NCBI GenBank assembly: GCA_963809485.1 | Contig: CAWEJX010000021.1 | Coordinates: 50,894-114,893 of the forward strand | DNA: 64,000 nt | Origin: an uncultured Acidobacteriota bacterium | GTDB lineage: Bacteria; Acidobacteriota; UBA6911 | Reading direction: 5' to 3' | Shown here: positions 3,053 through 62,831 of the stretch, in pieces | How positions within the stretch are numbered: position 1 is the first letter of the stretch | How the letters are laid out: each line of letters begins with the position of its first letter | Notes under the pieces: generated by a model | Database searches by the model: none | Seen by the model: the letters and a program-made list of their open reading frames with translations, nothing else | What the model was told of the DNA's origin: nothing | Position numbers and translations under genes: made by a program

Positions 3053-3226
3053 AGTATTCCTTTCAAAAATCCACAAAGCGGGCAGGCAGCAATACGGTCT
3101 TGATTATTGCAGGATGGCGAAACAAACAGGAGTTGCTGATGAAATCCCCCAATGCAACCGATCTTCGCGGCTTCTTGCAGGGAGGGCCCGGAATCAATTA
3201 GGCAGCTTATTCCGGCTATCCTTTGC

Positions 3227-5310
3227 CTAGCCCGAGTTTACCACCCGTAGGCGGCAAAATTCCATTTTGATCAGCATTGAAGCCCCTGCAAGCAACATAT
3301 TATGTATGACCTAACTATAATCCATTTATACCTCCACGACGACCGCCTGGCATTGCCGCCAGCCACGCAGTAATATTGTCGCAAAGCACTGAACTATTTC
3401 CTAAGAATATCTTTCTGTAATGCCTAATTTATCAAGACATCCGCATTTCTTTGATACTATATATTGGGCCTTCAGGCAATCTGCACAACAATATCTTGAC
3501 ATCACGAGTAAAATATTGTATGACCTAACCATGGCAAGCTTGACCAAGAAGTTCATCAAGGGAAGGCCCTACTACTACCTGCGGGAGTGCCGCCGTGTGG
3601 GCGGCAAGCCCAAAATCGTCTGGCAGGAATATATCGGCACGCCCCAACAGCTGACCCTGAGGCTCACCAACCCCAGACCCCAGGAAATCATCGTCCGGGA
3701 ATTTGGCGCTTCCGCCGCAACCTTCGATATGGCCCAAAAACTGGAGGTCGTTTCCATTATTGACCGTCACGTCCCCAAGGAGGGGAACCAGGGGCCTTCG
3801 GTCGGCGAGTATCTGCTGGTTGCTTGCCTCAACCGTTGCATGGCGCCCTGCAGCAAGGCGAAAACCGGCGAATGGTATGACAAAACCGTACTTCCCCGCC
3901 TGCTTGGCATCAAGAGTTCCCAGCTTTCCAGCCAGCGCTTCTGGGACAATATGAATCGGGTCAATCAACCGGAAATCGGCAAGATCGAGGCGGATATCTC
4001 CGCAGTCGCGGTATCCCGATTCGGCCTGGACCTGAAATGCCTGCTTTTTGATGCCACCAACTTTTTCACCTTTATCGACAGCTTCAACGATCGGGCGAAA
4101 CTGCCGCAGCGCGGCCATGGTAAAGAAGGGCGGGACAATTTGCGCATTATCGGCTTGGCCCTTTTGGTCACCTCCGACGGCGACGTCCCTCTGTTTCATT
4201 GCACTTACGCGGGCAACCAGCACGACTCGGTGACATTCTCCAGCGTAGCCGAGGATTTGGCTGACCGCTGCCGGAAGCTGTCCGAGGGTGTCTGTGACAT
4301 TACGCTCGTCTTCGACAAGGGGAATAACTCCAAGGAGAACCTGGATGCCGTCAACGCCGGGCCCTACCACTTCGTCGGATCTCTGGTTCCCAGCCAGCAT
4401 CCGCAACTCCTGCGCATCTCTCGAGACGAGATGCATCGATTGGACAAAAGCCTGCTGCCTTCCGTCTGGAGCTACCGAACGCAAAAAGAGGTCTTTGGGA
4501 TCCGGCGTACCGTCTTGGTCACATACAACCGCGAGCTTTACCGGGCACAGGTCAAGACTCTGAGGCGCGAAATCGCAAAACGCCGGCGCAAACTGCAGCA
4601 ACTGCAGCTGTCTCTCCAACGCCATAGCGGTCCGAACTCCCGAGGGAAGAAACCCACGCTGCAGGGAAGCCGCAACCGCGTTCAAAGTATTCTTGCAGGC
4701 CGCCACATGACCCAACTCTTTTCTGCCAAAGTGATCCTGGGCAAGGATCAGATCCCTCGGCTCCGATGGGCTTTCAGAGATCGAGAATGGGATCGATTGG
4801 ATCGAACCCTTCTGGGCAAAACAATCCTGTTCACGGATCGGGAAGAATGGACCGACGAACAGATCGTGTTGGCCTATCGGAGCCAATCTCACGTGGAAGC
4901 AGCATTCCGCCGCATGAAAGATCCCCGGTTCCTTGCCTTCCGTCCCACGCATCATTGGACCGATCAAAAGCTCCGAGTCCATGCTTTTTATTGCGTGCTG
5001 GCTTTAATGATAACGAGCCTGCTATGCCGCAAGCTCGCACAAGCTGGGATCCGCATGAGCATTGCGCGCATGATGGAACGGCTGAAAGACATCAATGAAG
5101 TGGTGAATCTATATCCAACCCCAAAGGGTGCGGAACCGCGCATGCAAGTCGACCTGTCACAACAGGACGCGGAACAAGCCGCCATTCTGAAAGCCCTCGA
5201 TCTGGCTCGGTACGTCTCAAATTAGGTCATACGTTTCGGGATCACTCGCAGCCGCTTCAATACTGATCAAAATGGAATTTTGCCGCCTACAGGTGGTAAA
5301 CTCGGGCTAG
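3227..5310 (+). mobile_element. IS1634-family insertion sequence, apparently intact
   Basis: The 48-bp terminal inverted repeats 3227..3274 and 5263..5310 match at 47 of 48 positions by eye. They enclose a single long transposase ORF. CTAG sits at both outer tips. Confidence 0.8.
3531..5225 (+). CDS. IS1634 family (IS4-like DDE) transposase
   Basis: ORF 3420..5225; likely start MASLTKKFIKGRPYYYLRECRRVGGKPKIVWQEYIG, an N terminus typical of IS1634 transposases. TTGACA-N17-TATGAC lies upstream. Confidence 0.8.
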   Translation: MASLTKKFIKGRPYYYLRECRRVGGKPKIVWQEYIGTPQQLTLRLTNPRPQEIIVREFGASAATFDMAQKLEVVSIIDRHVPKEGNQGPSVGEYLLVACLNRCMAPCSKAKTGEWYDKTVLPRLLGIKSSQLSSQRFWDNMNRVNQPEIGKIEADISAVAVSRFGLDLKCLLFDATNFFTFIDSFNDRAKLPQRGHGKEGRDNLRIIGLALLVTSDGDVPLFHCTYAGNQHDSVTFSSVAEDLADRCRKLSEGVCDITLVFDKGNNSKENLDAVNAGPYHFVGSLVPSQHPQLLRISRDEMHRLDKSLLPSVWSYRTQKEVFGIRRTVLVTYNRELYRAQVKTLRREIAKRRRKLQQLQLSLQRHSGPNSRGKKPTLQGSRNRVQSILAGRHMTQLFSAKVILGKDQIPRLRWAFRDREWDRLDRTLLGKTILFTDREEWTDEQIVLAYRSQSHVEAAFRRMKDPRFLAFRPTHHWTDQKLRVHAFYCVLALMITSLLCRKLAQAGIRMSIARMMERLKDINEVVNLYPTPKGAEPRMQVDLSQQDAEQAAILKALDLARYVSN

Positions 5311-5393
5311 AATTAGGATTGTAATACCGAAGCCTCGTTTTAACGTGGAATTCCTTTGAATATCCCGAAGACCCAGCAGGCTAGTCCATGATT

Positions 5394-9645: not shown

Positions 9646-9942
9646 TCAGTGCTGTCCAAATTGGCCCATTGGAAGCAGAGGGCTCATTGAAAGCATTCAA
9701 CTTGTGGCTCATGAAGTGCCCCTGCAAGGACGAGGTTGGCACCAAGCCCCGGTAGGGGCGGAAAGAAAATAGCCAGGGATGAGCGGAGCGAATCCCTGGT
9801 TCCTATGGCGAAGAAAAGAGCCCTGGGAAGGGCGAAAGACTATATGTTATCACGCCCTTCCAGGGCTCTCCTCTTGCCGATTCTCACCAGGGGTTCGCTC
9901 CGCTCACCCCTGGCTATTTTCTGATCGCCCCTTGCGGGGCTT
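9646..9942 (+). repeat. ~295-nt hairpin-rich repeat, copy 1 (inverted partner at 17843..18137)
   Basis: Nearly identical to the reverse complement of 17843..18137. It contains a 30-bp outer stem (agccagggatgagcggagcgaatccctggt / accaggggttcgctccgctcacccctggct) around an inner imperfect hairpin, then a short GC hairpin. Confidence 0.8.
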
Positions 9943-10308
9943 GCTCAAAAAACCTGTTTCGCGACAGTCCTCCATGCGCCCGGGGCGCACCCAAGTGCAT
10001 GAAAATCGGCTTCGCCGACGCTCAGTTGGGTGAACGAATGGTGTAATTGATCCATCGCGGCCGCTATTTTCGGAGCAGAAACGAGCCAATAGCCGTAAAA
10101 CAGTGGCAGGGTGGACTTTAAACAGTCGTGCTGCATCCGCTGCCGTTTTGTTCCCTTTCAGAATCATTGGCCTAATTTCAGATTGCTGCTGATGGGTCAA
10201 CTTAAATCGTCGTCCACCTACGCGTCCTTCTCGACGCGCAGCCTCCAAACCCGCTTTCGTTCGTTCGCGTAGCATTGCCCGCTCAAATTCTGCAAATGCT
10301 CCAACCAT
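9904..10308 (-). pseudogene. serine recombinase (resolvase/invertase) C-terminal remnant
   Basis: Only the AEFERAMLRERTKAGLEAARREGRVGGRR...HTH (AADAARLFKVHPATVLRLL) part is present, at roughly 10078..10308. The catalytic N-terminal domain is missing, and the ORF tail runs into the adjacent repeat. Confidence 0.6.
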
Positions 10309-12335: not shown

Positions 12336-13043
12336 ATGAACAGCGAACCCTTATTTTCAATGTGGGCAAGGCTTGGGGTGAACTTCCCTGCCTTTAAGCC
12401 GACCAAAGAGGAACCGCTTGTCGAGGACCTCATTGCTCAGACATCGCTCATCGGGAGATATGAGCCCCGCCTCATCGAAGGTATGGCCGGATGGCTGCAG
12501 AAACATGGGGATTTGGTTAACACCTCTCTTATGCGGAGGCATATTGAGATCGGCGATTCCGCCGTGATCGGTTTGGTGTTCGATGCTATAACCGGTAAAG
12601 AGACCGCCAAGCTGAAGCAGCTTACAAAATATTGCCGCCCCAAAAAGAAAGCAGAAATGCTTTTCTTTGCGACGGAATCGTCCCCGACGATGAAAGCGCA
12701 GGCTGTCGAGCACGAAACCGAAATTAACCGGAAATGGAATCTGCTTTATGTGAGTTTGCGAGTTAAGACGGATGCTGTTTTCGACCGCAAAGTGGTTCTG
12801 AAGAGAAATCCAAACCTTGCCCGCAGATCTCTATTCGGAGTCGTAATGCGTACGGAGATCCTGAATTTTCTACTACAGAAAGGATCAAGTTTTCCGGCGG
12901 AAATATCAAAGGCACTGGGCTATCGATATCACAGGGTTATTTCCGACCCGTTTCGCGCAGAACACGCCTCCACATGTCCAGAGAGAATACCCCCATGGTC
13001 CAGTGATCGGTCTCAATCCGAAGGCGTCCGTGTTCGCGAATGA
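12336..13043 (+). CDS. hypothetical protein, possible wHTH near the C terminus; 3' end overlaps a convergent gene
   Basis: Starts MNSEPLFSMW one nt after the upstream stop. The last ~35 codons are antisense to methyltransferase 12937..13638, which suggests the native 3' end has been replaced. Confidence 0.4.
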   Translation: MNSEPLFSMWARLGVNFPAFKPTKEEPLVEDLIAQTSLIGRYEPRLIEGMAGWLQKHGDLVNTSLMRRHIEIGDSAVIGLVFDAITGKETAKLKQLTKYCRPKKKAEMLFFATESSPTMKAQAVEHETEINRKWNLLYVSLRVKTDAVFDRKVVLKRNPNLARRSLFGVVMRTEILNFLLQKGSSFPAEISKALGYRYHRVISDPFRAEHASTCPERIPPWSSDRSQSEGVRVRE

Positions 13044-13638
13044 GATACAGGATCGTCGTTTCGTACTGCTCATCCGTGGGGTCGGGGTCATACACGTTCT
13101 CGATGAAGACAACGTCCACTCCCTCCCGCGTGGCCGGGGTGGTGCTGGTCTTGTTTTGCTGGAACGTCTCGGTCGTCACGTCCGGAGTAGCAACCAGGAT
13201 GCCGCCAGGGTTCAGATGGGCGTGTGCGGTGCGGAACGCTGCCACAAAGTCTGTCCGGCACCTCATGTGTGAGATCGCGTCGTCCATGAGCACGGCATCA
13301 AAAGTCCTGCCGAGTCTGCACGTCCGCATATCGTCCTGGACAAACGTGCACTCGGGATTCAGTTCCTTCGCCTGCGCAAGCATGGCGGCACTTAGATCGA
13401 CACCGGTGACGTTGAACTGCCGCTTCAGGTTCAGGACGGTCTTCCCGCCCCCGCACCCTATGTCCAGCAATGTGGTTGCCGGGCGCCTGGCGTGCTGACG
13501 GATCAGACCCGTGACGTGTTGGCAGTAGTGCGCGTATTCAGTGGCGGCATTGCCCCACATAGGCCAAAGCCACGCCAAGTCCGTATAGAGCCGGCAGGTA
13601 TCTTGCATCTCTCTTCTCATGCCGAACGCCTGAGTCAT
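12937..13638 (-). CDS. class I SAM-dependent methyltransferase
   Basis: ORF 12937..13773. The plausible start is MTQAFGMRRE at 13638, because the upstream part of the ORF is repeat sequence. SAM motif LLDIGCGGG. Confidence 0.75.
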   Translation of the reverse strand: MTQAFGMRREMQDTCRLYTDLAWLWPMWGNAATEYAHYCQHVTGLIRQHARRPATTLLDIGCGGGKTVLNLKRQFNVTGVDLSAAMLAQAKELNPECTFVQDDMRTCRLGRTFDAVLMDDAISHMRCRTDFVAAFRTAHAHLNPGGILVATPDVTTETFQQNKTSTTPATREGVDVVFIENVYDPDPTDEQYETTILYLIREHGRLRIETDHWTMGVFSLDMWRRVLRETGRK

Positions 13639-13641
13639 GTG

Positions 13642-13831
13642 CCTCCGGCAAAGCCGAAAGCTTGAAAGATTTGAACCGCTCAAAGCGGTTGGACTAGTTA
13701 CGCCGGTCTTGAACGCTGACTTACGCCGACCCTCGCCCAACAAATCGGCGTTTGTCAGCGCTTTTATCAGCATTTCTCAGCGTTTCAAAACACGAAGCTG
13801 TCAAACTCTTTTGAGTCCCCCGGCAGAGCCG
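13642..13831 (+). repeat. ~200-bp multi-hairpin repeat family, copy A (short form, 10-nt internal deletion)
   Basis: Shares the following with the copies at 29958, 39156, 44499, 45707 (reverse) and 58143 (reverse): cctccggcaaagccg..ggaaccgctcaaagcggttgga..gaacgctgac..cgccgaacaaatcggcg..tgtcagcgcttttatcagcgtttctcagcgttt..ctgtcaaactctttgagtcccccggcagagccg. Confidence 0.85.
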
Positions 13832-13859
13832 TGGACGATCCGCCGGATGCGCCGACGCA

Positions 13860-14606
13860 TCACCGCGGCATCAGCGCGAACACACCCCAGCCCAGGTATT
13901 CACGCGTGTAAGCGGCGTAGCGCTCGGGTTCCGAGGTCAGTTTGGCTCGAACATCTTTCGCGAACTCGTCGCCGGGGTTGGCTTCAAGCCATCGGCGCAT
14001 GGTGAGCCATTTGGCCGCCTCGTATCTGTCCCAGCCGTCCTGGTCAGCCAAAACCATTTCAACGACGTCGTAGCCAAGGCGGCCGAAAGACGCGAGAAGC
14101 TCCGGAAGCATGAGATAGTCGGAGATTGAGTTGGCAAGACATCCCTTGGCAACCTCTTCCGTCGGCGGTAACTGCCGCCAGTAGGGCTCGCCGATGAGGA
14201 TGATCCCTCCTGGGCGCAGGCTCCGCGCCAGAAGCTCGATAGTGCCGGCGACTCCACCGGCGATCCAGGTGGCACCGACACAGGCTGCCACACTGACCTT
14301 CTCGTCAGAGACATAGCCGGCAGCATCGCCATGGATGAACTTGACTTGATCGGCGACGCCGAGTTCTACAGCACGGAGTTTCGCTTGCTCGGTGTACAAC
14401 TGGCTCATGTCGATGCCTGTGCCGATGACGCCGTGATCGCGTGCCCAGGTGCACAGCATCTCCCCCGAACCGCTGCCGAGGTCGAGCACTCGGGCTCCCG
14501 ATTCCAGACGCAGCGCCGCGCCGAGAGTGGCGAGCTTTTCGGGTGTGATCGGGTTGTGGATGCGGTGAGCACTCTCAGTGATGTTGAATATCCGCGGGAT
14601 GTCCAT
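13860..14606 (-). CDS. class I SAM-dependent methyltransferase
   Basis: ORF 13860..14720. The start MDIPRIFNI at 14606 has a GGAG RBS. SAM motif VLDLGSGSGE. Confidence 0.8.
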   Translation of the reverse strand: MDIPRIFNITESAHRIHNPITPEKLATLGAALRLESGARVLDLGSGSGEMLCTWARDHGVIGTGIDMSQLYTEQAKLRAVELGVADQVKFIHGDAAGYVSDEKVSVAACVGATWIAGGVAGTIELLARSLRPGGIILIGEPYWRQLPPTEEVAKGCLANSISDYLMLPELLASFGRLGYDVVEMVLADQDGWDRYEAAKWLTMRRWLEANPGDEFAKDVRAKLTSEPERYAAYTREYLGWGVFALMPR

Positions 14607-14642
14607 TGTGAAAAATCTCCTTACGGGTGTGAATAGATCCGG

Positions 14643-14697
14643 CCAGGTCCTAACCTGGATTATACAGAACTTGAGAAATAATTCGCTAGGTGAATAG
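14643..14697 (-). promoter_or_regulatory. conserved promoter/leader block, copy A (shared with 19183..19237)
   Basis: About 45 of 60 ungapped positions are identical (by eye) to the region upstream of the cupin gene. The block contains a TATAAT (complement of 14659..14664) and the small palindrome ccaggttaggacctgg. Confidence 0.5.
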
Positions 14698-15015
14698 CGC
14701 TGGTGTACCAGGAATCCCAATTGCCTGGATAGCCATTAATATTTGAATCACGCTCAACGATCTCAGCCACTGAAAGACCTCAAATAGGAGTAAAATGTTT
14801 TTGGTAATCCTCAAAGGCAGGGGGATCCGTGAAGTGAGTCACTATCGTTATCCAATCATCGAAGCTGAAGGCGAGCGCATGCGGAAGGCGTTCACCTATA
14901 GCAATTGGCACTTCAGGATCTGTTTGGCGTTGATGATCATTGGAGTATTTTGCATTATATCTTCTCATTCTCGGGCAGGTCTATTGTTCATGGCCGTATC
15001 GGTCTGCATCTATCT

Positions 15016-15688: not shown

Positions 15689-17020
15689 CTATTCGCTATA
15701 GACAAGAGAAGTAGGTGCGGAGAGCAAAAACTCCTCTAAGGTGACTCCGGTTACTTGCTTTGACCTGAACGGCGATCTGCAAATGACCGTTAGGTGGTCG
15801 CGCGGAAAAATCCTGGAAAACCAGCTGAAGTCCATTGGACTGGCTTTCCCCCTTTTGACTTCAATGAAATCTCTATCAGGAGTTACAAAATCAATCTCGT
15901 GCTCCTTCGAAGCCCAGAAACCTATTGCTTCCGGATTAGACCTCCCTCCAAGGACGCATCGTCGCCATATTTCCTGCGCCACCAGCCATTCCATAAAAAC
16001 TCCTTGTATGTCCGGTAAAAGGTCTTCGAATTCGTGAACATACCTCAGAGAGGACGGGTGAAACGCGATGGCAACTGCCAGGTTGATGAAATTGAACTTG
16101 CAGGGCTTCCGCATAAGTACGGTTCTCTTGTTGGTATCAATCGGCCATGAGGGCATGACCGATAAAAGATCGGAGAGCTGTTCGATGTATCCACTGGCTA
16201 CCGTGTTGTTGGCAAGCCCCCCATCGCGGGCGAGTTTCGCAAATCCGACGGTGTTACCGCCGTTGTTCATGATGACGTGCAACAACCGGATTAAAGACAG
16301 CCTTTTTCTTCCGGATGAAACGACTTCTCCCAAAACCCAGTCGCGCACGATCTGGATAAAATATTCAGGAAGCCGCTCAAATTGACATATGTCATTGCAG
16401 GCAACCGGGGAACCTCCGGTCAGCAGATATGCGATCCAGGATTTCTCTCCATGAATCTCTTGAGCATTCAAATTGAATTCCCTATAGGAGATTGGAAGGA
16501 AAATATATTCATTCTTTGACAATTTTCCTTTCCTGCCGGGAAGCTTCTCCGAGCCGTGGCGAAGATCGGACGCCGTTGAACCGGTCGTGATGATGAGGAC
16601 ATCCCTAAAAAGTCCCCGGTCGATCACCCGCTTTACGGCTTTTTCCCAGGCCGGTACGGCCGTTATCTCATCGATAAATAGTCGCTTGATTCCGACGTCT
16701 CTGGAATAGGAGGCATACAGGTTGGTCAATTCCAGATCCAGTTCATCCGCAGAGGCAATTTCGTCGCCATTTAAATAATAGGAAGAACCTTTCCCGAATT
16801 CCTCTGCCGACTGTCGCAGGTTCATGTCGAGCCACGTGCTCTTGCCGTATTGGCGTGGTCCACGGATGATGATAAGCCCCGGTTCTGTCGGAAGTTCGTT
16901 CAGCCCGAATTCGAAACGAAACTGATGAGCTTTGGATTCCAATTCAATGATCCGAGGCCACATGTCATCGCGATCGATGTTTCCTTGCGCCAGCAGCTGA
17001 TTGATTGTCTTAACGTCCAT
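15689..17020 (-). CDS. AAA-family ATPase with DUF4143-like C-terminal domain
   Basis: 443 aa with Walker A GPRQYGKST and Walker B-like LFIDEIT. The C-terminal HEIDFV...IEVKRGK segment is typical of AAA_14/DUF4143 proteins (from memory). Confidence 0.75.
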   Translation of the reverse strand: MDVKTINQLLAQGNIDRDDMWPRIIELESKAHQFRFEFGLNELPTEPGLIIIRGPRQYGKSTWLDMNLRQSAEEFGKGSSYYLNGDEIASADELDLELTNLYASYSRDVGIKRLFIDEITAVPAWEKAVKRVIDRGLFRDVLIITTGSTASDLRHGSEKLPGRKGKLSKNEYIFLPISYREFNLNAQEIHGEKSWIAYLLTGGSPVACNDICQFERLPEYFIQIVRDWVLGEVVSSGRKRLSLIRLLHVIMNNGGNTVGFAKLARDGGLANNTVASGYIEQLSDLLSVMPSWPIDTNKRTVLMRKPCKFNFINLAVAIAFHPSSLRYVHEFEDLLPDIQGVFMEWLVAQEIWRRCVLGGRSNPEAIGFWASKEHEIDFVTPDRDFIEVKRGKASPMDFSWFSRIFPRDHLTVICRSPFRSKQVTGVTLEEFLLSAPTSLVYSE

Positions 17021-17034
17021 AGCGTTAATATACC

Positions 17035-17051
17035 TAACGTTTCAAACGTTA
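17035..17051 (-). promoter_or_regulatory. palindromic operator-like site upstream of the ATPase gene
   Basis: taacgtttcaaacgtta lies 15 nt upstream of the ATG. The same palindrome is conserved upstream of the deleted paralog at 23138..23154. Confidence 0.45.
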
Positions 17052-17073
17052 GCAACTGGATATCCTTTTAGCC

Positions 17074-17842: not shown

Positions 17843-18137
17843 AAGGGCCGGAGGCCCGGCAGATAACAGCCAGGGGTGAGCGCAGCGAACCCCTGGTAGG
17901 AATTGGCAATAGAAAGAGCCCTGGAATGCGTGATAGGATATAGTCTTTCGCCCTTCCCAGGGCTCTTTTCTTCGCCATAGGAACCAGGGATTCGCTCCGC
18001 TCATCCCTGGCTATTCTCTTTCCGCCCCTACCGGGGCTTGGTGCCAACCTCGTCCTTGCAGGGGCACTTCATGAGCCACAAGTTGAATGCTTTCAATGAG
18101 CCCTCTGTTTCCAATGGGCCAATTTGGACAGCACTGA
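17843..18137 (-). repeat. ~295-nt hairpin-rich repeat, copy 2 (inverted relative to 9646..9942)
   Basis: The reverse complement matches copy 1 with only 2 differences over roughly the first 195 nt (by eye). The 3' hairpin arm is more diverged, and the element ends in a different short GC hairpin (gggcctccggccc). Confidence 0.8.
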
Positions 18138-22905: not shown

Positions 22906-23137
22906 GCACAAGTATTTCAGTGGTTCGAAGGTGGAGGAGTGCCTCCAGATCCGCTCTCGATGGTTTTCGATCATGGCAGGCCGGCGGCCAGTTCCGAACG
23001 TATCGGGACGCGCAATGAGAGCGTGTCGTTGTCACCCTCGATCCAGTCGCCGGCGCCTCCCTCGCTGTCGGATCTGATCACCGCCTTTGCGCATTACAAC
23101 CAGTCCTTGCCTTAATTTTATAGGGCTATCCCGCTGC

Positions 23138-23154
23138 TAACGTTTTAAACGTTA
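23138..23154 (+). promoter_or_regulatory. palindromic operator-like site (paralog of 17035..17051)
   Basis: taacgttttaaacgtta lies 14 nt upstream of ATG 23169. The flanking gctaacg...tatattaacgctATGGACGTTAAGACAAT is conserved with the intact ATPase gene. Confidence 0.45.
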
Positions 23155-23168
23155 ACTATATTAACGCT

Positions 23169-23655
23169 ATGGACGTTAAGACAATAAATCACCTCCTGGC
23201 CGGTTGAGAGTAATAAGAAAACCCTCCTCATGCGGAAGCCCTGCAAGTTCCATTTCATCAACCTGGCAGCGGCCATCGCCTTTCATCCATCATCGCTGAA
23301 ATATGTTCACAGGTTCGAAAGTCTTTCACTGGGCATACAAGGAGTTTTCATGGAATGGCTGGTGGCTCAGGAAATCTGGCGGCGAAGGGTCCTCGGAGGG
23401 AGTTCAAATCCCGAAGCGTTAGGTTGCTGGGGCTCGAAGGAGCACGAAATTGATTTTGTAACTCCCGATAAAGACTTCATTGAAATTAAAAGAGGAAAGG
23501 CCGGCCCTATCGACCTCGGTTGGTTTTCCAAGGTTTTCCCGCGCGACCATTTAACGGTAATTTGCAGCTCCCCGTTCACGTCCAGGCAGGGGATCCGAGT
23601 CCCAATGGAGCAATTTTTGCTTTCTGCGCCTACTTCACTGGAATATAGCGAATAA
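23169..23655 (+). pseudogene. internally deleted paralog of the DUF4143 ATPase gene
   Basis: MDVKTINHLLAG then a stop. Homology resumes out of frame at ...NKKTLLMRKPCKFHF and runs to the same C terminus (SAPTSLEYSE) as 15689..17020. About 280 codons are missing. Confidence 0.75.
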
Positions 23656-29342: not shown

Positions 29343-29906
29343 TCAAAGGCCTGCAGCTTTTGCCAGAACCATCGAGTGTTCTCTCCAAATACTGGGCGTG
29401 GCGGCCGTTTTGAAACCCATGGCCGAAGCCAGCGAAATTGTTCGTGAAAATTCCTGCCGGGTAACGTGCCCCCTGGGTTCTGAAATGAGCAGGCATCCAT
29501 TCTGTTTCAGTAACCTGTGGATTTCCTGCAGAATCCGCTCCTGATCCGGAACTTCGTGGACGACCGCGAATGCCAGCACAAAGTCGGCGGAGCCTGACAT
29601 ATCCTCCATATTCAGGGAATCCTTTTGCGCGCGCCTCGTTACGATCCTATCGAGCACGCCGGCCTTTTGCGCTCGTTTTATTAAGGAAGCCAGCATCTTC
29701 TCCTGCAGGTCGACGCAGACAACTTTGCCTTTGTTGCCGACCAGGACCGCCATGGGAAGGCTGAAATATCCCATACCGCTGCCGATATCGGCGACGGTCA
29801 TCCCGTAAGCGACATAGGAACGCAATATTTCCCCGGGATCGTGTATCAGCTTTCGTATAGGGTTCGCCAGCAAATATCCGAGCCACCAGGGACAGACTCT
29901 ACTCAT
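29343..29906 (-). CDS. class I SAM-dependent methyltransferase
   Basis: ORF 29343..30176. The plausible start is MSRVCPWWLGY at 29906, since upstream is repeat sequence. SAM motif VADIGSGMGY. Confidence 0.75.
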   Translation of the reverse strand: MSRVCPWWLGYLLANPIRKLIHDPGEILRSYVAYGMTVADIGSGMGYFSLPMAVLVGNKGKVVCVDLQEKMLASLIKRAQKAGVLDRIVTRRAQKDSLNMEDMSGSADFVLAFAVVHEVPDQERILQEIHRLLKQNGCLLISEPRGHVTRQEFSRTISLASAMGFKTAATPSIWREHSMVLAKAAGL

Positions 29907-29957
29907 AATTTCGCTCCAGCAAACACCCGCAGTATCGCGGGAATATGGAGTCAGGTA

Positions 29958-30350
29958 CCTCCGGCAAAGCCGGAGACTTGAAAGATTGGAACCGCTCAAA
30001 GCGGTTGGACTAGTTACGCCGGTCTTGAACGCTGACTTACGCGGGCAAAAGCCGATGAGGCGCCTCCGATCCCCGCAGGGGCCAGCGCTCCGCGCTGGAC
30101 AGTTTTCTGCGGCGGCACTGTGGCAAGCGCCGTGCGGCAAGGAGATGAAGGGTATGAGAAACCGGGCGTTTGCCACAGTGCCGCCGCAGAAAACTCCATC
30201 GGAAGCGCCTCATCGGCTTTTGCTCGCCGACCTTCGCCGAACAAATCGGCATTTGTCAGCGCTTTTATCAGCGTTTCTCAGCGTTTCAAAATACGGAGCT
30301 GTCAAACCCTTTGAGTCCCCCGGCAGAGCCGGAGGTTTACCAATGTAATT
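29958..30350 (+). repeat. ~200-bp repeat family, copy B (long form with ~175-bp nested palindromic insert)
   Basis: Same ends as copy A. The insert at 30046..30230 has 25-bp outer and 31-bp inner inverted arms. The copy ends in gtttaccaatgtaattattggtaaac. Confidence 0.85.
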
Positions 30351-30372
30351 ATTGGTAAACGGAATAAAGGGC

Positions 30373-31173
30373 TTATTTCAAAGCTGTTGCCTGAAAAAAG
30401 GTATAGCAGAATGTGCCGTCTTCGAGTGTAGATCTGTTCAAGTCCGCGATGCCTTTGTTCCACGATGTTTCGTCGATGAGGCCGGCGGAGAGAGCCTCTT
30501 CTTTTACCCCTTCGACCATGGCAATGAATGTTCTTCTGGTAAATCCCTCAACCAGATCCGGACGGCTCGCGTCGACATAAACCATCCGGGGCGCAACGTG
30601 TACCTCCCTGAATCCCGATCCAGCCAGCAACGGGTACAGCCGGCGCCCGATCAGGGAGTCGCCATGCTTGCGGGCCTGCAACTCGATCAGACACCGGACC
30701 GCCCGGTCGGCAGCATTGCTTCTGGGATGGCAGTAGTAGGATCCATGGTCCCCTTCTATGACATTGATCGAACCGCCATCCGCCAATACACCTCTCAGCA
30801 CGGACAGAGCCATTTCCGGTTTGCGCAAATGCTCCAGCAGGAAGCACACGAACAGGTGGTCGTATGCCCCGGCTTCATAGGGGAGATTGTAGACATCCGC
30901 TATTTCGAATCGCGCGTTCGACAATCCCGCCTGATCCAGCCTCTCGCGGGCCTTCATGATGGATTCGCCCGATGCATCAAAAGATGTGAAAAGGGAATCG
31001 GGATTATTCCGGGCCAGATGCATCGTTTGTGCGCCGACTCCGCAGCCGGCCTCGAGCACCCGGCTTCCTTTGGGAAACCTCACGCTTGCATGCAGGAGTT
31101 CCGCCAGCATATCTGCCTGATCCGTCAACCTGCCAGCTTCAATCTCAGAATATCCATGAACGTATCTCCCCAT
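30373..31173 (-). CDS. SAM-dependent methyltransferase (Methyltransf_11-like)
   Basis: 266 aa with motif VLEAGCGVGAQT. Confidence 0.8.
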   Translation of the reverse strand: MGRYVHGYSEIEAGRLTDQADMLAELLHASVRFPKGSRVLEAGCGVGAQTMHLARNNPDSLFTSFDASGESIMKARERLDQAGLSNARFEIADVYNLPYEAGAYDHLFVCFLLEHLRKPEMALSVLRGVLADGGSINVIEGDHGSYYCHPRSNAADRAVRCLIELQARKHGDSLIGRRLYPLLAGSGFREVHVAPRMVYVDASRPDLVEGFTRRTFIAMVEGVKEEALSAGLIDETSWNKGIADLNRSTLEDGTFCYTFFQATALK

Positions 31174-38839: not shown

Positions 38840-39097
38840 ATGGGGATGGAATTTTTGGGCGACAAAAATAGATTCTGCAAATGGTATTTGAAGCGCATCA
38901 CGGTAATTCTGGCTTTGTTTTTTGTGCTGGGACCCGTAGGGCTGCCGCTGCTTTACCGCAGCCCCCATTTTGGCAAGGCATCCAAAATAATCCTGACCGT
39001 TGCTGTAGTTGTTTATACAGCCTATCTTACCTACGCATCATGGGAGTTGATACGGTTGCTTTGGGACATAATCGGAACCCTGCAGCAACAGCCCTAA
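38840..39097 (+). CDS. small membrane protein (2 predicted TM segments)
   Basis: 85-aa ORF with hydrophobic segments ITVILALFFVLGPVGLPLL and IILTVAVVVYTAYLTY, and AAGGAA upstream. Confidence 0.4.
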   Translation: MGMEFLGDKNRFCKWYLKRITVILALFFVLGPVGLPLLYRSPHFGKASKIILTVAVVVYTAYLTYASWELIRLLWDIIGTLQQQP

Positions 39098-39155
39098 CCC
39101 AATGGGGGATCCACCGGCCGTGCCGGTGAAGCAGTATCAGTTTGACAGTCAGGCA

Positions 39156-39365
39156 CCTCCGGCAAAGCCGGAGGCTTGAACGATTGGAACCGCTCAAAGC
39201 GGTTGGAGGAGTTACGCTGGTCTTGAACGCTGACCTGGGCGGGCAAAAGCCGACTCTCGCCGAACAAATTGGTGTTTGTCAGCGCTTTTGTCAGCGTATC
39301 TCAGCGTTTCAAAATACGGAGCTGTCAAACTCTATGAGTCCCCGGGCAGAGCCGGGTTTACCAAT
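39156..39365 (+). repeat. ~200-bp repeat family, copy C
   Basis: Full-length short form ending in ...cgggcagagccgggtttaccaat. Confidence 0.85.
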
Positions 39366-39405
39366 AGAATTTCCGGAGCATGCCTTTTCCCCGGCAACCA
39401 AACCT

Positions 39406-39438
39406 GAATACCGAATTTCGAATGTCGAACCGCAGAAG
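39406..39438 (-). repeat. ~35-nt motif family (ttctgcggttcgacattcgaa.t.cg.tattc), copy 1
   Basis: The reverse complement, cttctgcggttcgacattcgaaattcggtattc, matches 45899..45939 and 62682..62722. Confidence 0.75.
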
Positions 39439-39705
39439 TTTAGGCCGGCCTTCGAAATTCATCATTTGTTATTCAATATTGTGCGGTTCCAATAGCTTTA
39501 AATATATCTATAGCCCATGAAACTTATTTAATTTCACATCGGTTGCAGTCAAACCCCTTTGAGGGGCCAGCAGGCATAAAGCCTCCGTCTCTGCCGAGCG
39601 ATATTTGCTCCGAAAACGGGTCGCACCGGGAGCGGCCGCCTGTCCTTTCAGTCCCTGAATAGCTCTTGACCCAATACCTTATTATCCATTATACTATGCA
39701 TTACC

Positions 39706-44144: not shown

Positions 44145-44498
44145 GTGAACCTCCGATGCAAAAATTCCGCCTGTGAAAGGCATCAAGAAAAAGTTTTGTG
44201 ATTCCCGGAAAACTCTCCCAGCCGGCCGATTCTCCCTTTTAATCAGGAGTAGTTCTGTTAAAGCAAGGCGCATGGACTGCGAGTCTCGCAATCTGCCTTT
44301 TTCGGAACCAGTCGGAAATATTTAATTTGGCCGACATTATAGAACAGAGGAAGGGGATAGGCTACGCAATTCCTCAATCCAAATGCTTGGGATTATGCCC
44401 ATCTTTCCGGGAAAGCAGGGTTCTTCCGGCGAAGCCGGATGCTTTACAGTTGCCGGCCCCTTAAAGGGACTTGATCGCAACCGATGAAAAGTCAGGTG

Positions 44499-45177: not shown

Positions 45178-45706
45178 CCTACCCCCCCTTCCCATGCAGC
45201 CGTCTTGTGCCGGCCTTTCGTATAGTGTACAACATGGTGCAATAATGCTGTGATGCACCCCAAATCCATATCTGGCAACAGGCCCACTGCGGGAATGGGG
45301 GGATTTGGGAGGACTTAGGAAGATTTCTCGGTGGATGTGCTCGATTGCATTGCCTGGATTCCTGACAATAACCAGCTTTATGTTTGGCGCCGGTGAGGAC
45401 ACCGGCGGGTTGATTATGTTGCCGGATTCCGGTTGCGCCGACTTGCAGGATGTTTCTATCCCGGCCTCGGCAATCGGCCTCCCCAGTTCAGGCGCCGTAG
45501 TCAAGACAGCCACGCTGGTATCAGCGACAGCCGCTCACAACGTCAACGGTGAGTTCTGCACCGTAATCGGGAGCTCTTAATCCGGCGAGTTTAACGAAAT
45601 CCGGCATGGGAACGGAAAATAAGGCTGATAGTTACACCTGCACTTCAAGGACCCAATGAGGATCTCCCGGTAACGGTTTACATTATGAATACACTGGTAC
45701 CTTCTC

Positions 45707-45875
45707 AGCTCTGCCGGGGGACTCACGGAGTTTGACAGTTCCAGGATCGTTGAACGCCGACGTACACTGACAAAACACTGACGAACGCTGATTCCTGAGG
45801 CAACGGCCGGCGGCTAGAGGCAGTGTAGCTCATCCAACCGCTTTGAGCAGAAAACAATCAAGTTTCCGGCTCTGT
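45707..45875 (-). repeat. ~200-bp repeat family, copy E (diverged)
   Basis: The reverse complement retains cctccgacagagccgg, ctcaaagcggttgga and ctgtcaaactccgtgagtcccccggcagagc, but the central part is diverged. Confidence 0.6.
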
Positions 45876-45898
45876 CGGAGGCAGTCGACTGTCGAAGT

Positions 45899-45939
45899 CT
45901 TCTGCGGTTCGACATTCGAAGTTCGATATTCAATATTTC
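45899..45939 (+). repeat. ~35-nt motif family, copy 2
   Basis: cttctgcggttcgacattcgaagttcgatattcaatatttc. Confidence 0.75.
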
Positions 45940-46040
45940 TTATCTTCCGCTTGCAGTCAGAACAGCGGGTAAAACGCGTGCTCCAGTACTTGCCAAACGG
46001 AAACGGCCACACCGGCAGAGCCCGGGGATCTCCCGATGGA

Positions 46041-56781: not shown

Positions 56782-57895
56782 ATGACGAATACAGATCGTG
56801 GGAAGCTGAAACTTTACATGGGATATGCGGCGGGCGTCGGAAAGACCTACAGGATGCTCGAAGATGCCCAGGCGCTTAAGGCTCAAGGTGTAGATGTCGT
56901 CATCGGCTATTTTGAACCTCATGGCCGTGCAGGCCACGATTGAAAAAACCGAAGGACTGGAGACCGTTCCAAGGGCAAAAGTACATTATCGAGGATCGGT
57001 GTTTGAGGAGATGGATACGGACGCCATCCTGGATCGGCGTCCCCTCTTATGCCTGGTCGACGAGTTTGCCCATACCAATGTTCCAGGATCTTCCCGCACT
57101 AAACGCTGGGAGGATATTGAAATATTGCGCGACGCCGGAATCGATATCTGGACGACTATGAACATACAGCACCTGGAAAGCCTGAATGATCAGGTCCGGC
57201 AGATCGCGGGAATCCGGGTGCGGGAAACTGTTCCGGATTGGGTTGTGCAACAGGCCGACGAGGTCGTCATTATCGATCTCTCACCCCGGGCGCTCCTGCA
57301 TCGCCTGGAAAGGGGAGTGATTTACGGCCGGGAAAATGTGGAACGCGCCCTGCAGAACTTCTTCCGTGAATCCACGCTGGTGGCCCTCCGGGAATTGGCG
57401 CTGCGCGAAACCGCCCTCGAGATAAAGCAACGCGTGATCAAGGATGAAGCCGCAACGATCCCGAAGTCCTCCGATCCGAATCAGGCTGGAAATCACAAAA
57501 TTCTGCTGTTTTTGACTGCAGATCCGAGCACCGCAATGCTGATCCGCCGTGCCAGGCGTGTCGGAGATTTCCTGGGGGCCGAATGCTTTGCCGTGGCAGT
57601 AAACACTACAGCTGATTTGAACCGGATGACAAATTCGAACCGGGAAGCCATCGAGCGGCATGTGAATTTTGCGCGCAATATGCGGATTGAAACCCGAATA
57701 CTCGAGGGAAATGATCCGGCCCAAACACTGATAGATTTTGCGCATGAGAATCATATAACGCAGATCTTTATCTCACGCTCCCGAAAGGCATCCCAGGCTG
57801 TTTTTTCACAGCGGGGATTGCTGCAGAAGATCGTTCGCCTGGCCAGGGATATGCAGATTGTCATCGTCTCCGAGCGGGAATCCGCAACAGAGTGA
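56782..57895 (+). pseudogene. KdpD N-terminal sensor domain + Usp domain protein, paralog 2, one frameshift
   Basis: MTNTDRGKLKLYMGYAAGVGKTYRML...GYFEPHGR, then a shift near 56927 into 56894..57895 (...LVDEFAHTN...NIQHLESLND... plus Usp). Confidence 0.75.
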
Positions 57896-58142: not shown

Positions 58143-58312
58143 CATAATTACATTGGTAAACCCCCGGCTCTCCCGGGGGACTCAAAGAGTTTGACAGCTC
58201 CATATTTTGAAACGCCGAGAAACGCTGACAAAAGCGCTGACAAACGCCGATTTGTTCGGCGAGGGTCGGCGAGCAAAAGCCGGTGAGGCGCTTCCGATGG
58301 AGTTTTCTGCGG
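58143..58312 (-). repeat. ~200-bp repeat family, copy F (long-form type, 5'-truncated)
   Basis: The reverse complement matches the right half of copy B, including one arm of the nested insert (ccgcagaaaactccatcggaagcgcctca.cggcttttgctcgccgacc) and the gtttaccaatgtaatta tail. Confidence 0.8.
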
Positions 58313-58402
58313 TATATTCCCGATATCCGTATCGGATAAGCACAACCGGCAATTTCCGGCAGCGCCGGTGGATTGCCGATTCACCTATTCAAGGAGCGGC
58401 CT

Positions 58403-62558: not shown

Positions 62559-62681
62559 TCGATCTTAAGCCGACAACCTCGAGCAAAACCCGAAAACGCC
62601 CGGGGCTCCAAGCCTCATCTTGGCAGCGGCGCGCCCATCGCGCCAATATCACGGCCTGCATTTCCCGCAGGATTTTCCCGG

Positions 62682-62722
62682 ATTCTGCGGTTCGACATTC
62701 GAAATCCGATATTCAGAATTTC
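62682..62722 (+). repeat. ~35-nt motif family, copy 3
   Basis: attctgcggttcgacattcgaaatccgatattcagaatttc. Confidence 0.75.
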
Positions 62723-62831
62723 GCTGTGCCTATATTCCTGGTTGCTGTCAGAGCACCGGGGAAAAGGCATGTTCCGGCTCATGTCAAATGGATGCTGCCT
62801 CGCCGGCAGAGCCGATAGATTTCGCGAGCGA

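Follow-up and report, generated by a model that had tools for sequence, protein, structure and literature searches.

The stretch analysed here, a 64-kb window (all 64,000 nucleotides taken from contig CAWEJX010000021.1 of an uncultured Acidobacteriota bacterium, assembly GCA_963809485.1), carries six copies of one repeat family, termed copies A to F, in the spaces between its genes. A first-pass annotation of the same sequence had recorded them as multi-hairpin intergenic elements, likened to IS200/IS605-derived palindrome-associated elements and to repetitive extragenic palindromes (REPs). We find that the six repeats are very probably non-autonomous derivatives of IS200-type insertion sequences (IS200/IS605 family), that is, palindrome-associated transposable elements (PATEs), because their ends match those of elements encoding the transposase TnpA, their hairpins co-vary, ends of several copies obey a rule linking guide bases to cleavage sites, no target duplication is seen at copy C, and the window contains neither a transposase gene nor an Rfam family match.

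Six copies of one repeat family

BLASTN with copies D and B as queries recovered all six proposed copies in the window. A 22–23-nt core, CTGTCAAACYC-N2-3-TGAGTCCCC, occurs six times, compared with no occurrence in 100 dinucleotide-preserving shuffles. Pairwise identity is 88–95% among copies A–D and F, and ~77% for copy E. The six loci of the first-pass annotation stand, and their extents do not: in a multiple alignment and in profile matches, conservation continues 8–9 nt past the earlier 5′ coordinates, through AGTCAGGTG. The earlier + orientation is antisense to the transposase gene tnpA of complete relatives, and the element top strand of A–D is the − strand of the window. The copies and their target positions, with the strand of the element's top strand, are as follows:

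Copy A, 13633 to ~13838, − strand (previously +); right-end profile E = 9e-20, left-end profile E = 1e-11 (partial)
Copy B, 29949–30347, − strand (previously +); 399 nt, long form; left-end profile E = 9e-17, right-end profile E = 1e-19
Copy C, 39147–39368, − strand (previously +); 222 nt, short form, found by BLASTN and profiles
Copy D, 44490 to ~44714, − strand (previously +); short form, found by BLASTN and profiles
Copy E, ~45686 to 45890, + strand (previously −); old diverged copy in the opposite orientation
Copy F, 58149–58312, + strand (previously −); left-end half and part of the long-form palindrome
30348–30351, − strand; target TAAT abutting the left end of B, outside the element; a start conserved in four identical insertion sequence copies, and the target that GTAAA predicts
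39369–39372, − strand; AAAT next to the left end of C, in the position of the target
58145–58148, + strand; target TAAT abutting the left end of F

The elements range from 170 to 400 nt and differ by insertions and deletions; they are too short for a transposase and have no conserved open reading frame (ORF). No Pfam-supported ORF is interrupted by any copy, consistent with the earlier statement that all copies are intergenic, except that copy C sits within another repeat element.

Ends shared with complete IS200-type elements

A scan for the core motif over one genome per species returned at least 41 loci, in Acidobacteriota, 'delta proteobacteria' (including Syntrophaceae, Geobacteraceae and Desulfosarcina), Latescibacterota, Planctomycetota/Phycisphaerae and one cyanobacterium, according to the genome labels. 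Only ~55 nt around the motif is common to these loci; on one side the sequence varies by locus group, and on the other it passes into unique flanks. At least 13 of the loci are among the matches listed from one related Acidobacteriota metagenome-assembled genome (MAG), so the copy number is high there. Genomes of Latescibacterota, Desulfosarcina, Geobacteraceae and Holophagaceae carry a 143-aa ORF next to the motif, which in several loci directly precedes it; the ORF runs antisense to the orientation of the first-pass annotation. It matches the Pfam family Y1_Tnp ('Transposase IS200 like', E = 2e-37 and 2e-40) and also the solved IS200-type, IS608 and ISDra2 transposases. A left end adjoining the start of tnpA was found in a Holophagaceae (Acidobacteriota) MAG (locus L018), and Y1_Tnp ORFs with the same left and right ends were found in the elements of loci L008, L028, L024 and L044.

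The complete element of L008 measures ~637 nt, and both of its ends match the window element. Its left end reads TAAT|TAATCGGA-GTAAA-CCCCCGGCTTTGCCGGGGG-ACTCAAAGAGTTTGACAG, followed by a hairpin over the ribosome-binding site and then tnpA; its right end reads AACCGCTTTGAGCGGTT-CACGGTTT-TCAAG-CCTCCGGCTTTGCCGGAGG-TCTCTGACT. The boundaries are set by four identical copies, which start at TAAT after A, T, C or G and end in ...TGACT. The same ends as those of the window element flank an annotated IS200/IS605 tnpA on plasmid pLBX of Leptolyngbya boryana, and ISMex34 has a related set of ends. A further 80 autonomous relatives were taken from metagenomes for the table of left ends. These matches bear out the proposal of Y1-mobilised, IS200/IS605-derived palindrome-associated elements. 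A search of a plasmid database with the whole element matched the ends alone, on Desulfovibrionales and Rhodanobacter plasmids, where they are unannotated. The window and the fetched loci do not overlap beyond the repeats.

The first-pass annotation had noted no Y1 transposase gene in the window, and none was found in tblastn searches of the 64 kb with two queries, the 143-aa TnpA and a 361-aa Y1_Tnp-domain protein encoded at 1248–2333 of locus L043, two genes upstream of a methyltransferase pair syntenic with the copy A locus.

From outside to inside, the left end consists of the external target TAAT, a 7-nt linker, the guide GTAAA, an 8-bp hairpin (the subterminal palindrome IP_L), a small second hairpin and GTTTGACAG. 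At the right end, the innermost part is a hairpin whose loop reads TTTGA; the guide TCAAG follows, then a second hairpin of 8 bp (IP_R), and the tail NNNN-TGAC(T) comes last. In copy B, these parts lie on the − strand as follows:

30336–30347, − strand; guide GTAAA (30336–30340) and 7-nt linker TACATTG (30341–30347) of the left end
30317–30335, − strand; IP_L, CCTCCGGC-TCT-GCCGGGGG, with covariation
30299–30316, − strand; second left-end module ACTCAAAGGGTTTGACAG, a 4-bp hairpin plus GTTTGACAG, nearly invariant across phyla
29990–30006, − strand; right-end inner hairpin AACCGC-TTTGA-GCGGTT, conserved in complete IS200 right ends, with three double-sided pair changes
29958–29981, − strand; guide TCAAG (29977–29981) and IP_R, TCTCCGGC-TTT-GCCGGAGG (29958–29976)
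29949–29957, − strand; right-end tail TACC-TGAC-T, with the predicted cleavage tetranucleotide TGAC at 29950–29953 (offset 4)

IP_L (CCCCCGGC-TCT-GCCGGGGG) and IP_R (CCTCCGGC-TTT-GCCGGAGG) are similar subterminal palindromes in direct orientation on the same strand, as had been noted, and covariation supports both. The termini, TACATTGG... and ...CCTGACT, are not inverted repeats; a classical miniature inverted-repeat transposable element was rejected on this ground and for want of a target duplication at C. TGAC is followed by T in 30 of 31 cases, which leaves the right boundary uncertain by 1 nt (TGAC or TGACT, with the T at 29949 belonging to the element or to the flank). The first-pass layout runs in the reverse direction: its first two hairpins form the right end, and its 3′ module with the tail tttaccaat gtaatta is the left end read backwards (guide GTAAA, linker and target TAAT).

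The left-end hairpins, aligned over 29 sequences, have 95.7% of cells paired compared with at most 62% in slid controls, and three pairs are changed on both sides. For the right end (inner hairpin and IP_R; 18 sequences), 92.3% of cells are paired compared with at most 45%, and four pairs are changed on both sides.

In IS608, the cleavage tetranucleotide is paired by the four bases that precede each hairpin on its 5′ side: at the left end, TTAC is paired by AAAG, and at the right end, TCAA by GAAT (PMC3201880). Across all tabulated left ends, the tetranucleotide at the target position likewise changes with the bases 5′ of the hairpin. The relation can be written as target = comp(g−3) comp(g−4) A comp(g−1), where g denotes the guide and comp the complement, and this rule reproduces both published IS608 pairs (PMC3201880). 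Other registers, simple antiparallel or strict position-by-position, failed for several guide classes and were discarded; the pairs retained are c1–g(−3), c2–g(−4) and c4–g(−1). The guide variants and their targets are:

Guide GTAAA, target TAAT
Guide GTAAT, target TAAA
Guide GTAAG, target TAAC
Guide GAAAA, target TTAT
Guide GAAAC, target TTAG
Guide GAAAT, target TTAA
Guide GCAAT, target TGAA
Guide GAGAC, target CTAG
Guide GAGAT, target CTAA

At left ends, 78 of the 101 lineages have the predicted tetranucleotide 6–12 nt upstream of the guide (class-swapped control, mean 7, maximum 15). At right ends, 61 of the 68 lineages have it 3–5 nt past the hairpin (control mean 0.24, maximum 2). Of the 44 lineages whose guide predicts TAAT, 39 have this target directly at the left end, as do copies B and F. 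The window copies obey the rule at the left ends of B and F (GTAAA to TAAT) and at the right ends of A, B and C (TCAAG to TGAC).

Interior, insertion sites and state of the copies

In place of tnpA, the elements contain a non-coding palindrome of 70–240 nt. Copy B is longer than the others because of a 170-nt internal palindrome, and this segment is part of the family's long form, not a foreign insert, because a full-length 405-nt relative of B, 82% identical, is present in another Acidobacteria MAG (L037). Two interior features were mapped in B:

30056–30225, − strand; long palindrome inside the long form, absent by deletion from A, C and D, with its right part kept in F
30254–30287, − strand; imperfect tandem ~11-nt units (...ACGCTGA...), which pair with inverted TCAGCGTT near the right end

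Copy F matches B with 95% identity; a profile search of F found the left-end module alone and no right-end module. The short forms derive from the long form by internal deletion, as would be expected of a long palindrome made up of repeats; core deletions are also on record for PATEs (PMC3119063).

All hairpins listed earlier (ccggca-aag-ccgg, aaccgc-tcaaa-gcggtt and cgccga-acaa-atcggcg) form in the predicted DNA fold. In copy D (−43.1 kcal/mol, z = −3.2), gaacgctga pairs with tcagcgtt, in agreement with the proposed pairing of gaacgctgac with a downstream unit; the fold of copy B reaches −135.2 kcal/mol (z = −15.4). The 'three tandem ~11-nt units' of the first-pass annotation are less regular than that wording implies: Tandem Repeats Finder gives only 2.1 copies of a 12-nt unit, and by eye three to four imperfect units of the form (G/T/C)AAA(A)CGCTGA can be discerned. 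The internal palindrome probably acts only as a spacer that folds the element and brings both ends together.

Copy C is inserted in an element of a second, gene-less IS200-type family, pieces of which are distributed over the window:

39095–39146 and 39373–39612, + strand; second-family element interrupted by copy C
62680–62830, − strand; second-family sequence
45899–46034, − strand; second-family sequence
44414–44489, − strand; second-family sequence
~58350–58380; second-family sequence

An uninterrupted paralogue at 62756–62820 reads ...TTTGAC-ATGAG-CCGGAAC..., compared with ...TTTGAC-[C]-CCGGAGC... at the site filled by C. The comparison reveals no target duplication; as the paralogue has diverged, the junction is good to ~1 nt. 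The left end of the second family, CTAA ... GGGAT-CCACCGG-CCGTG-CCGGTGA-GCAGTATCAGTTTGAC, places it in an ISMex34-like clade, and its right end resembles Syntrophaceae-type right ends. Four of the six first-family copies (C, D, E and F) touch a fragment of the second family. Copy D was considered as a clean nested insertion and rejected, as only its right flank matches the second family and D merely abuts a solo right end.

At the left end of B, the flank at 30340–30362 is palindromic, GTTTACCAA-TAATTA-(CA)TTGGTAAAC, and looks like a 13-nt remnant of the tail of a second left end placed head to head. TAATTA contains the target TAAT on either strand, which makes such an arrangement possible.

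The regions of copy A (12937–14720) and copy B (29343–31173) each have the copy between two same-strand class I S-adenosylmethionine-dependent methyltransferase genes, four in all. The pair at copy A is also present in GCA_040767085, where an unrelated 380-nt spacer without the element separates the two genes. The elements are therefore not conserved at orthologous positions. The first-pass annotation had said that copies found only at such positions would point to a conserved regulatory RNA, and this objection to a mobile repeat falls away. Exact-protein look-ups of neighbouring genes found one protein not on record and two only on short contigs.

The first-pass annotation had further proposed that the terminal ccggagg of copy A supplies the Shine–Dalgarno sequence of the adjacent methyltransferase gene, with an ATG at 13638 as its start. 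This is not supported. Homologues start at MRREMQ or MKDTC, corresponding to the window ATGs at 13620 or 13608, and relatives have AGGAG just upstream of the second ATG. The ATG at 13638 falls within the right end of copy A, which reads CACATGACT compared with the consensus CACCTGACT, and GGAGG is only 3 nt away from it. Copy A ends 13 nt upstream of the conserved start, and the gene start is therefore independent of the element. At its other end (12937–13000 region), the gene lacks the last ~22 residues of all close homologues, reading ...LRETG, then RK and a stop, compared with ...LRETGFEVHEGRY...; the missing part is encoded in no frame downstream, which indicates that the 3′ end was lost in a rearrangement.

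The copies differ in how much of their ends is preserved:

Copy B; target, linker, guide, both hairpins and TGAC all intact, the only copy with both ends fully intact
Copy C; close to intact, with a left hairpin that a 1-nt change has shortened and with AAAT in place of the target
Copy A; right end intact (TCAAG, IP_R, CACA-TGAC-T), left hairpin with one mismatch, left guide, linker and target lost
Copy D; right end intact except for one stem mismatch, 5′ arm of the left hairpin and guide degenerate
Copy E; old and diverged, guide and target no longer recognisable
Copy F; right half missing

Judged from these ends, only B, and perhaps C, look still mobilisable. Copy A is probably immobile, because the guide, linker and target of its left end are lost. 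That any copy is active today is much less certain.

Mobilisation, alternative explanations and relevance

PATEs were defined in an earlier study (PMC3119063), and gene-less PATEs mobilised in trans are reported from bacteria (PMC10055086). The window elements have every property of PATEs (PMC3119063) for which a test gave a clear answer. By analogy with the peel-and-paste mechanism of IS608 and ISDra2 (PMC3201880, PMC5027513), the elements were probably transposed in trans in single-stranded form. A dimer of TnpA, made from a gene elsewhere in the genome, would bind both hairpins on the top strand while it is single-stranded at the replication fork. Cleavage would occur 3′ of TAAT and 3′ of TGAC, at sites placed by base contacts with the guides, and would release a single-stranded circle with the predicted junction ...CCTGAC(T)|TACATTGGTAAA.... 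The circle would then be pasted 3′ of another TAAT, leaving the target unduplicated; the predicted empty site at B is ...CCGTTTACCAATAAT|(T)CCATATTCCCGCG.... The GC skew weakly suggests that the top strand of A–D lies on the lagging-strand template.

Several observations weigh against identifying the repeats as PATEs. No transposase of the source genome was found within the 64-kb window, so any mobility today is presumptive. No IS-type left end with the family-specific tail turned up when metagenome contigs were scanned for an autonomous partner. In four of the six copies, the left or the right end is no longer intact, and the exact right boundary, TGAC or TGACT, is good only to 1 nt. The orientation bias is weak, with a + strand GC skew of only about −0.03 and with E and F opposite to A–D. 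The empty-site comparison for C uses a ~77% identical paralogue at another locus. Finally, the guide rule was written after the left ends on which it was tested had been viewed, and the independent evidence for it consists of the right-end test and the IS608 values only.

Each copy might instead be the in-place remnant of a separate full-length IS200 element that lost tnpA by internal deletion, no short element ever having transposed. Core deletions from IS605-type elements to PATEs are documented (PMC3119063), and deletions between internal repeats clearly occurred here, from the long form to the short forms. However, all copies have the same interior, with tandem ACGCTGA units, the cgccga hairpin and the long palindrome, and this interior has no visible similarity to the tnpA region of the complete L008 element. 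The copies are, moreover, 88–95% identical, and the same interior is present in other Acidobacteriota MAGs. Independent deletions would not yield an identical interior, which makes this origin very unlikely.

The reading as REP/REPIN-type repeats, spread by a domesticated REP-associated tyrosine transposase (RAYT), draws on the Y1 HUH enzymes and hairpins of both systems, on hairpin recognition and on a high intergenic copy number in each, and on the 361-aa Y1_Tnp protein near the syntenic methyltransferase pair (L043). That protein has no counterpart in the window, however, and no IP-like hairpin was found in L043. REPs are 20–40 nt long, with a conserved tetranucleotide head, inverted doublets and a single-copy domesticated gene flanked by REPs, none of which was seen here. 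The window elements measure 200–400 nt and have two different composite ends (~65–75 nt) in direct orientation; they contain no 20–40-nt GTAG-type palindromes and no inverted REP doublets, and their ends match short single-gene IS200 elements, not RAYT loci. We therefore regard the REP-type alternative of the first-pass annotation as highly improbable.

Just as improbable, in our assessment, is a structured regulatory RNA family (small RNA, attenuator or terminator) maintained for its RNA function. The folds are strongly stable, the copies lie between genes, and GC-rich hairpins could affect read-through. By contrast, Rfam gave no match in the window at gathering thresholds, so the known riboswitch or small RNA family that would have spoken against mobile repeats did not appear; at E ≤ 1, there were only sub-threshold, chance-level matches (the microRNA-like MIR1861 and mir-B6 on the long palindrome, isrG and algC). 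No promoter or terminator was called at element ends in 29.5–46.5 kb (copies B–E), where site counts equal the shuffled expectation. Orientation to neighbouring genes varies, the syntenic locus lacks the element, and one copy sits within a different repeat. What is conserved corresponds exactly to the transposon ends, common to TnpA-encoding elements of other phyla.

It is barely credible that the repeats are PATEs with an omega-RNA, a guide RNA used by a TnpB or IscB nuclease whose gene lies elsewhere. Omega-RNAs have been reported from some PATEs (PMC10055086), but tnpA is the sole gene in the complete relatives examined in detail (L008, ~637 nt; L044 and L045, annotated with tnpA alone), no HEARO or omega-RNA family of Rfam matches, and the right end is only ~65 nt.

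As non-autonomous IS200-type derivatives, the window elements share many features with the PATEs of Haloquadratum walsbyi (PMC3119063) and Geobacillus stearothermophilus (PMC10055086). Both groups are too short for a transposase and have no terminal inverted repeats; similar palindromes in direct orientation lie near both ends, the ends match those of IS200/IS605 elements, and targets are not duplicated. A short conserved oligonucleotide abuts the 5′ end, the distance between terminus and palindrome is longer at that end, and nested insertions into other mobile elements and internal ('core') deletions occur in both. The parents differ, being IS200-type with tnpA only for the window elements and IS1341/TnpB-type for haloarchaeal PATEs. 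The window elements also differ from known PATEs in their Acidobacteriota host and in a long-palindrome interior of ~11-nt ACGCTGA units, in contrast to fused ends only or an omega-RNA-bearing core. What is new is this tnpA-only IS200-type parent, the Acidobacteriota host and the unusual palindromic interior; the kind of element is already known.

With IS608 of Helicobacter pylori and ISDra2, the elements share subterminal hairpins on one strand, a target tetranucleotide outside the left end and a right cleavage tetranucleotide inside the element, 8–9 nt 3′ of the hairpin here compared with 10 nt in IS608. They also share a 4–5-nt guide 5′ of each hairpin, with the same pairing pattern, and a second left-end hairpin 3′ of IP_L. 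Unlike IS608 and ISDra2, they have neither tnpA nor tnpB, their target is TAAT and not TTAC or TTGAT, the left cleavage site lies 12–15 nt from the hairpin compared with 19, and there is no sequence similarity beyond the architecture. Among annotated IS200-type elements, the pLBX element has the same left-end module (TAAT, GTAAA, hairpin, ACTCACAAAGTTTGACAG) and right-end layout, and ISMex34 of Methylorubrum extorquens represents a sister clade with target CTAA and GCAGTAG..GTTTGAC that is the source clade of the second family in the window. Both are autonomous, with a TnpA of 143–144 aa, whereas the window elements have no ORF; their public records annotate the tnpA genes only, not the ends.

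At least two further gene-less families occur on the same ends (loci L001, L010, L012, L017 and L023; loci L004, L014, L019, L022 and L034), so tnpA has been lost many times from these ends. One such family, in groundwater 'Deltaproteobacteria' MAGs, has a GGGAGGG-rich interior; the other comes from Syntrophaceae and from a LacPavin 'Deltaproteobacteria' MAG, and its four copies with the guide GAAAA have the target TTAT. A bolder, two-part reading holds that the IS200 clade is one promiscuous, currently active system, in which a single transposase type mobilises many cargo-less families, and that the phased interior is a functional module (a secondary binding array for TnpA or a host protein, or a fold that boosts mobilisation in trans) and not junk. 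The observations that allow it are a left-end module (hairpin and ACTCAnAGAGTTTGACAG) ~90% identical across genomes labelled as Acidobacteriota, as Syntrophaceae, Geobacteraceae and Desulfosarcina among the 'delta proteobacteria', and as Latescibacterota, Planctomycetota/Phycisphaerae and Cyanobacteria; the presence on these ends of several gene-less families that are unrelated to one another; and, in the Acidobacteriota family, helically phased (~11 nt) ACGCTGA units within the long palindrome. We consider this reading unlikely.

Two related loci showed further features. A Latescibacterota IS200 copy (L040, 3435–5142) has its tnpA split by a ~1.2-kb insertion after codon 31. At 1868–1965 of L008, an STnc490 match of Rfam covers the IS200 left end with 20 bits, far below the gathering score of 56. 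STnc490 is a Salmonella small RNA encoded at the left end of IS200, and the weak match agrees with an IS200-type architecture.

Other features of the window are:

3218–5319; probable complete DDE insertion sequence with a 601-aa ORF (3420–5225; Pfam DDE_Tnp_1, E = 1e-7) and terminal inverted repeats of ~75 nt, 88% complementary
9646–9943 and 17860–18137; two inverted copies, 92% identical, of another repeat family of ~280 nt, each with a long internal palindrome (9743–9831 with 9855–9943) and unrelated to the IS200-type elements
15690–16152 and 23192–23654; 463-nt inverted repeat, 81% identical (also 16989–17070 and 23119–23200), linking an AAA_14/DUF4143 ATPase gene (15689–17020) to a 141-aa partial paralogue (23230–23655)
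56894–57895; KdpD-type ORF upstream of copy F, only 333 aa with the N-terminal sensor domain alone, naturally short or truncated

The six previously unannotated repeats and at least four second-family fragments are thereby explained, in a region that otherwise looks like structured intergenic RNA. The repeats probably cause breaks in assemblies, in line with the short length of the Logan contigs on which genes next to B and C are found. As the ATG inside copy A illustrates, transposon ends can also mislead gene-start calls. With the gathered loci, the IS608 guide code can be tested on natural variation across a widespread clade of IS200 elements, in which at least nine guide variants go with the predicted target, and the code makes the ends and targets of such elements annotatable from sequence alone. 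The clade-wide guide code confirms the established mechanism and leaves the understanding of the IS200/IS605 family unchanged.

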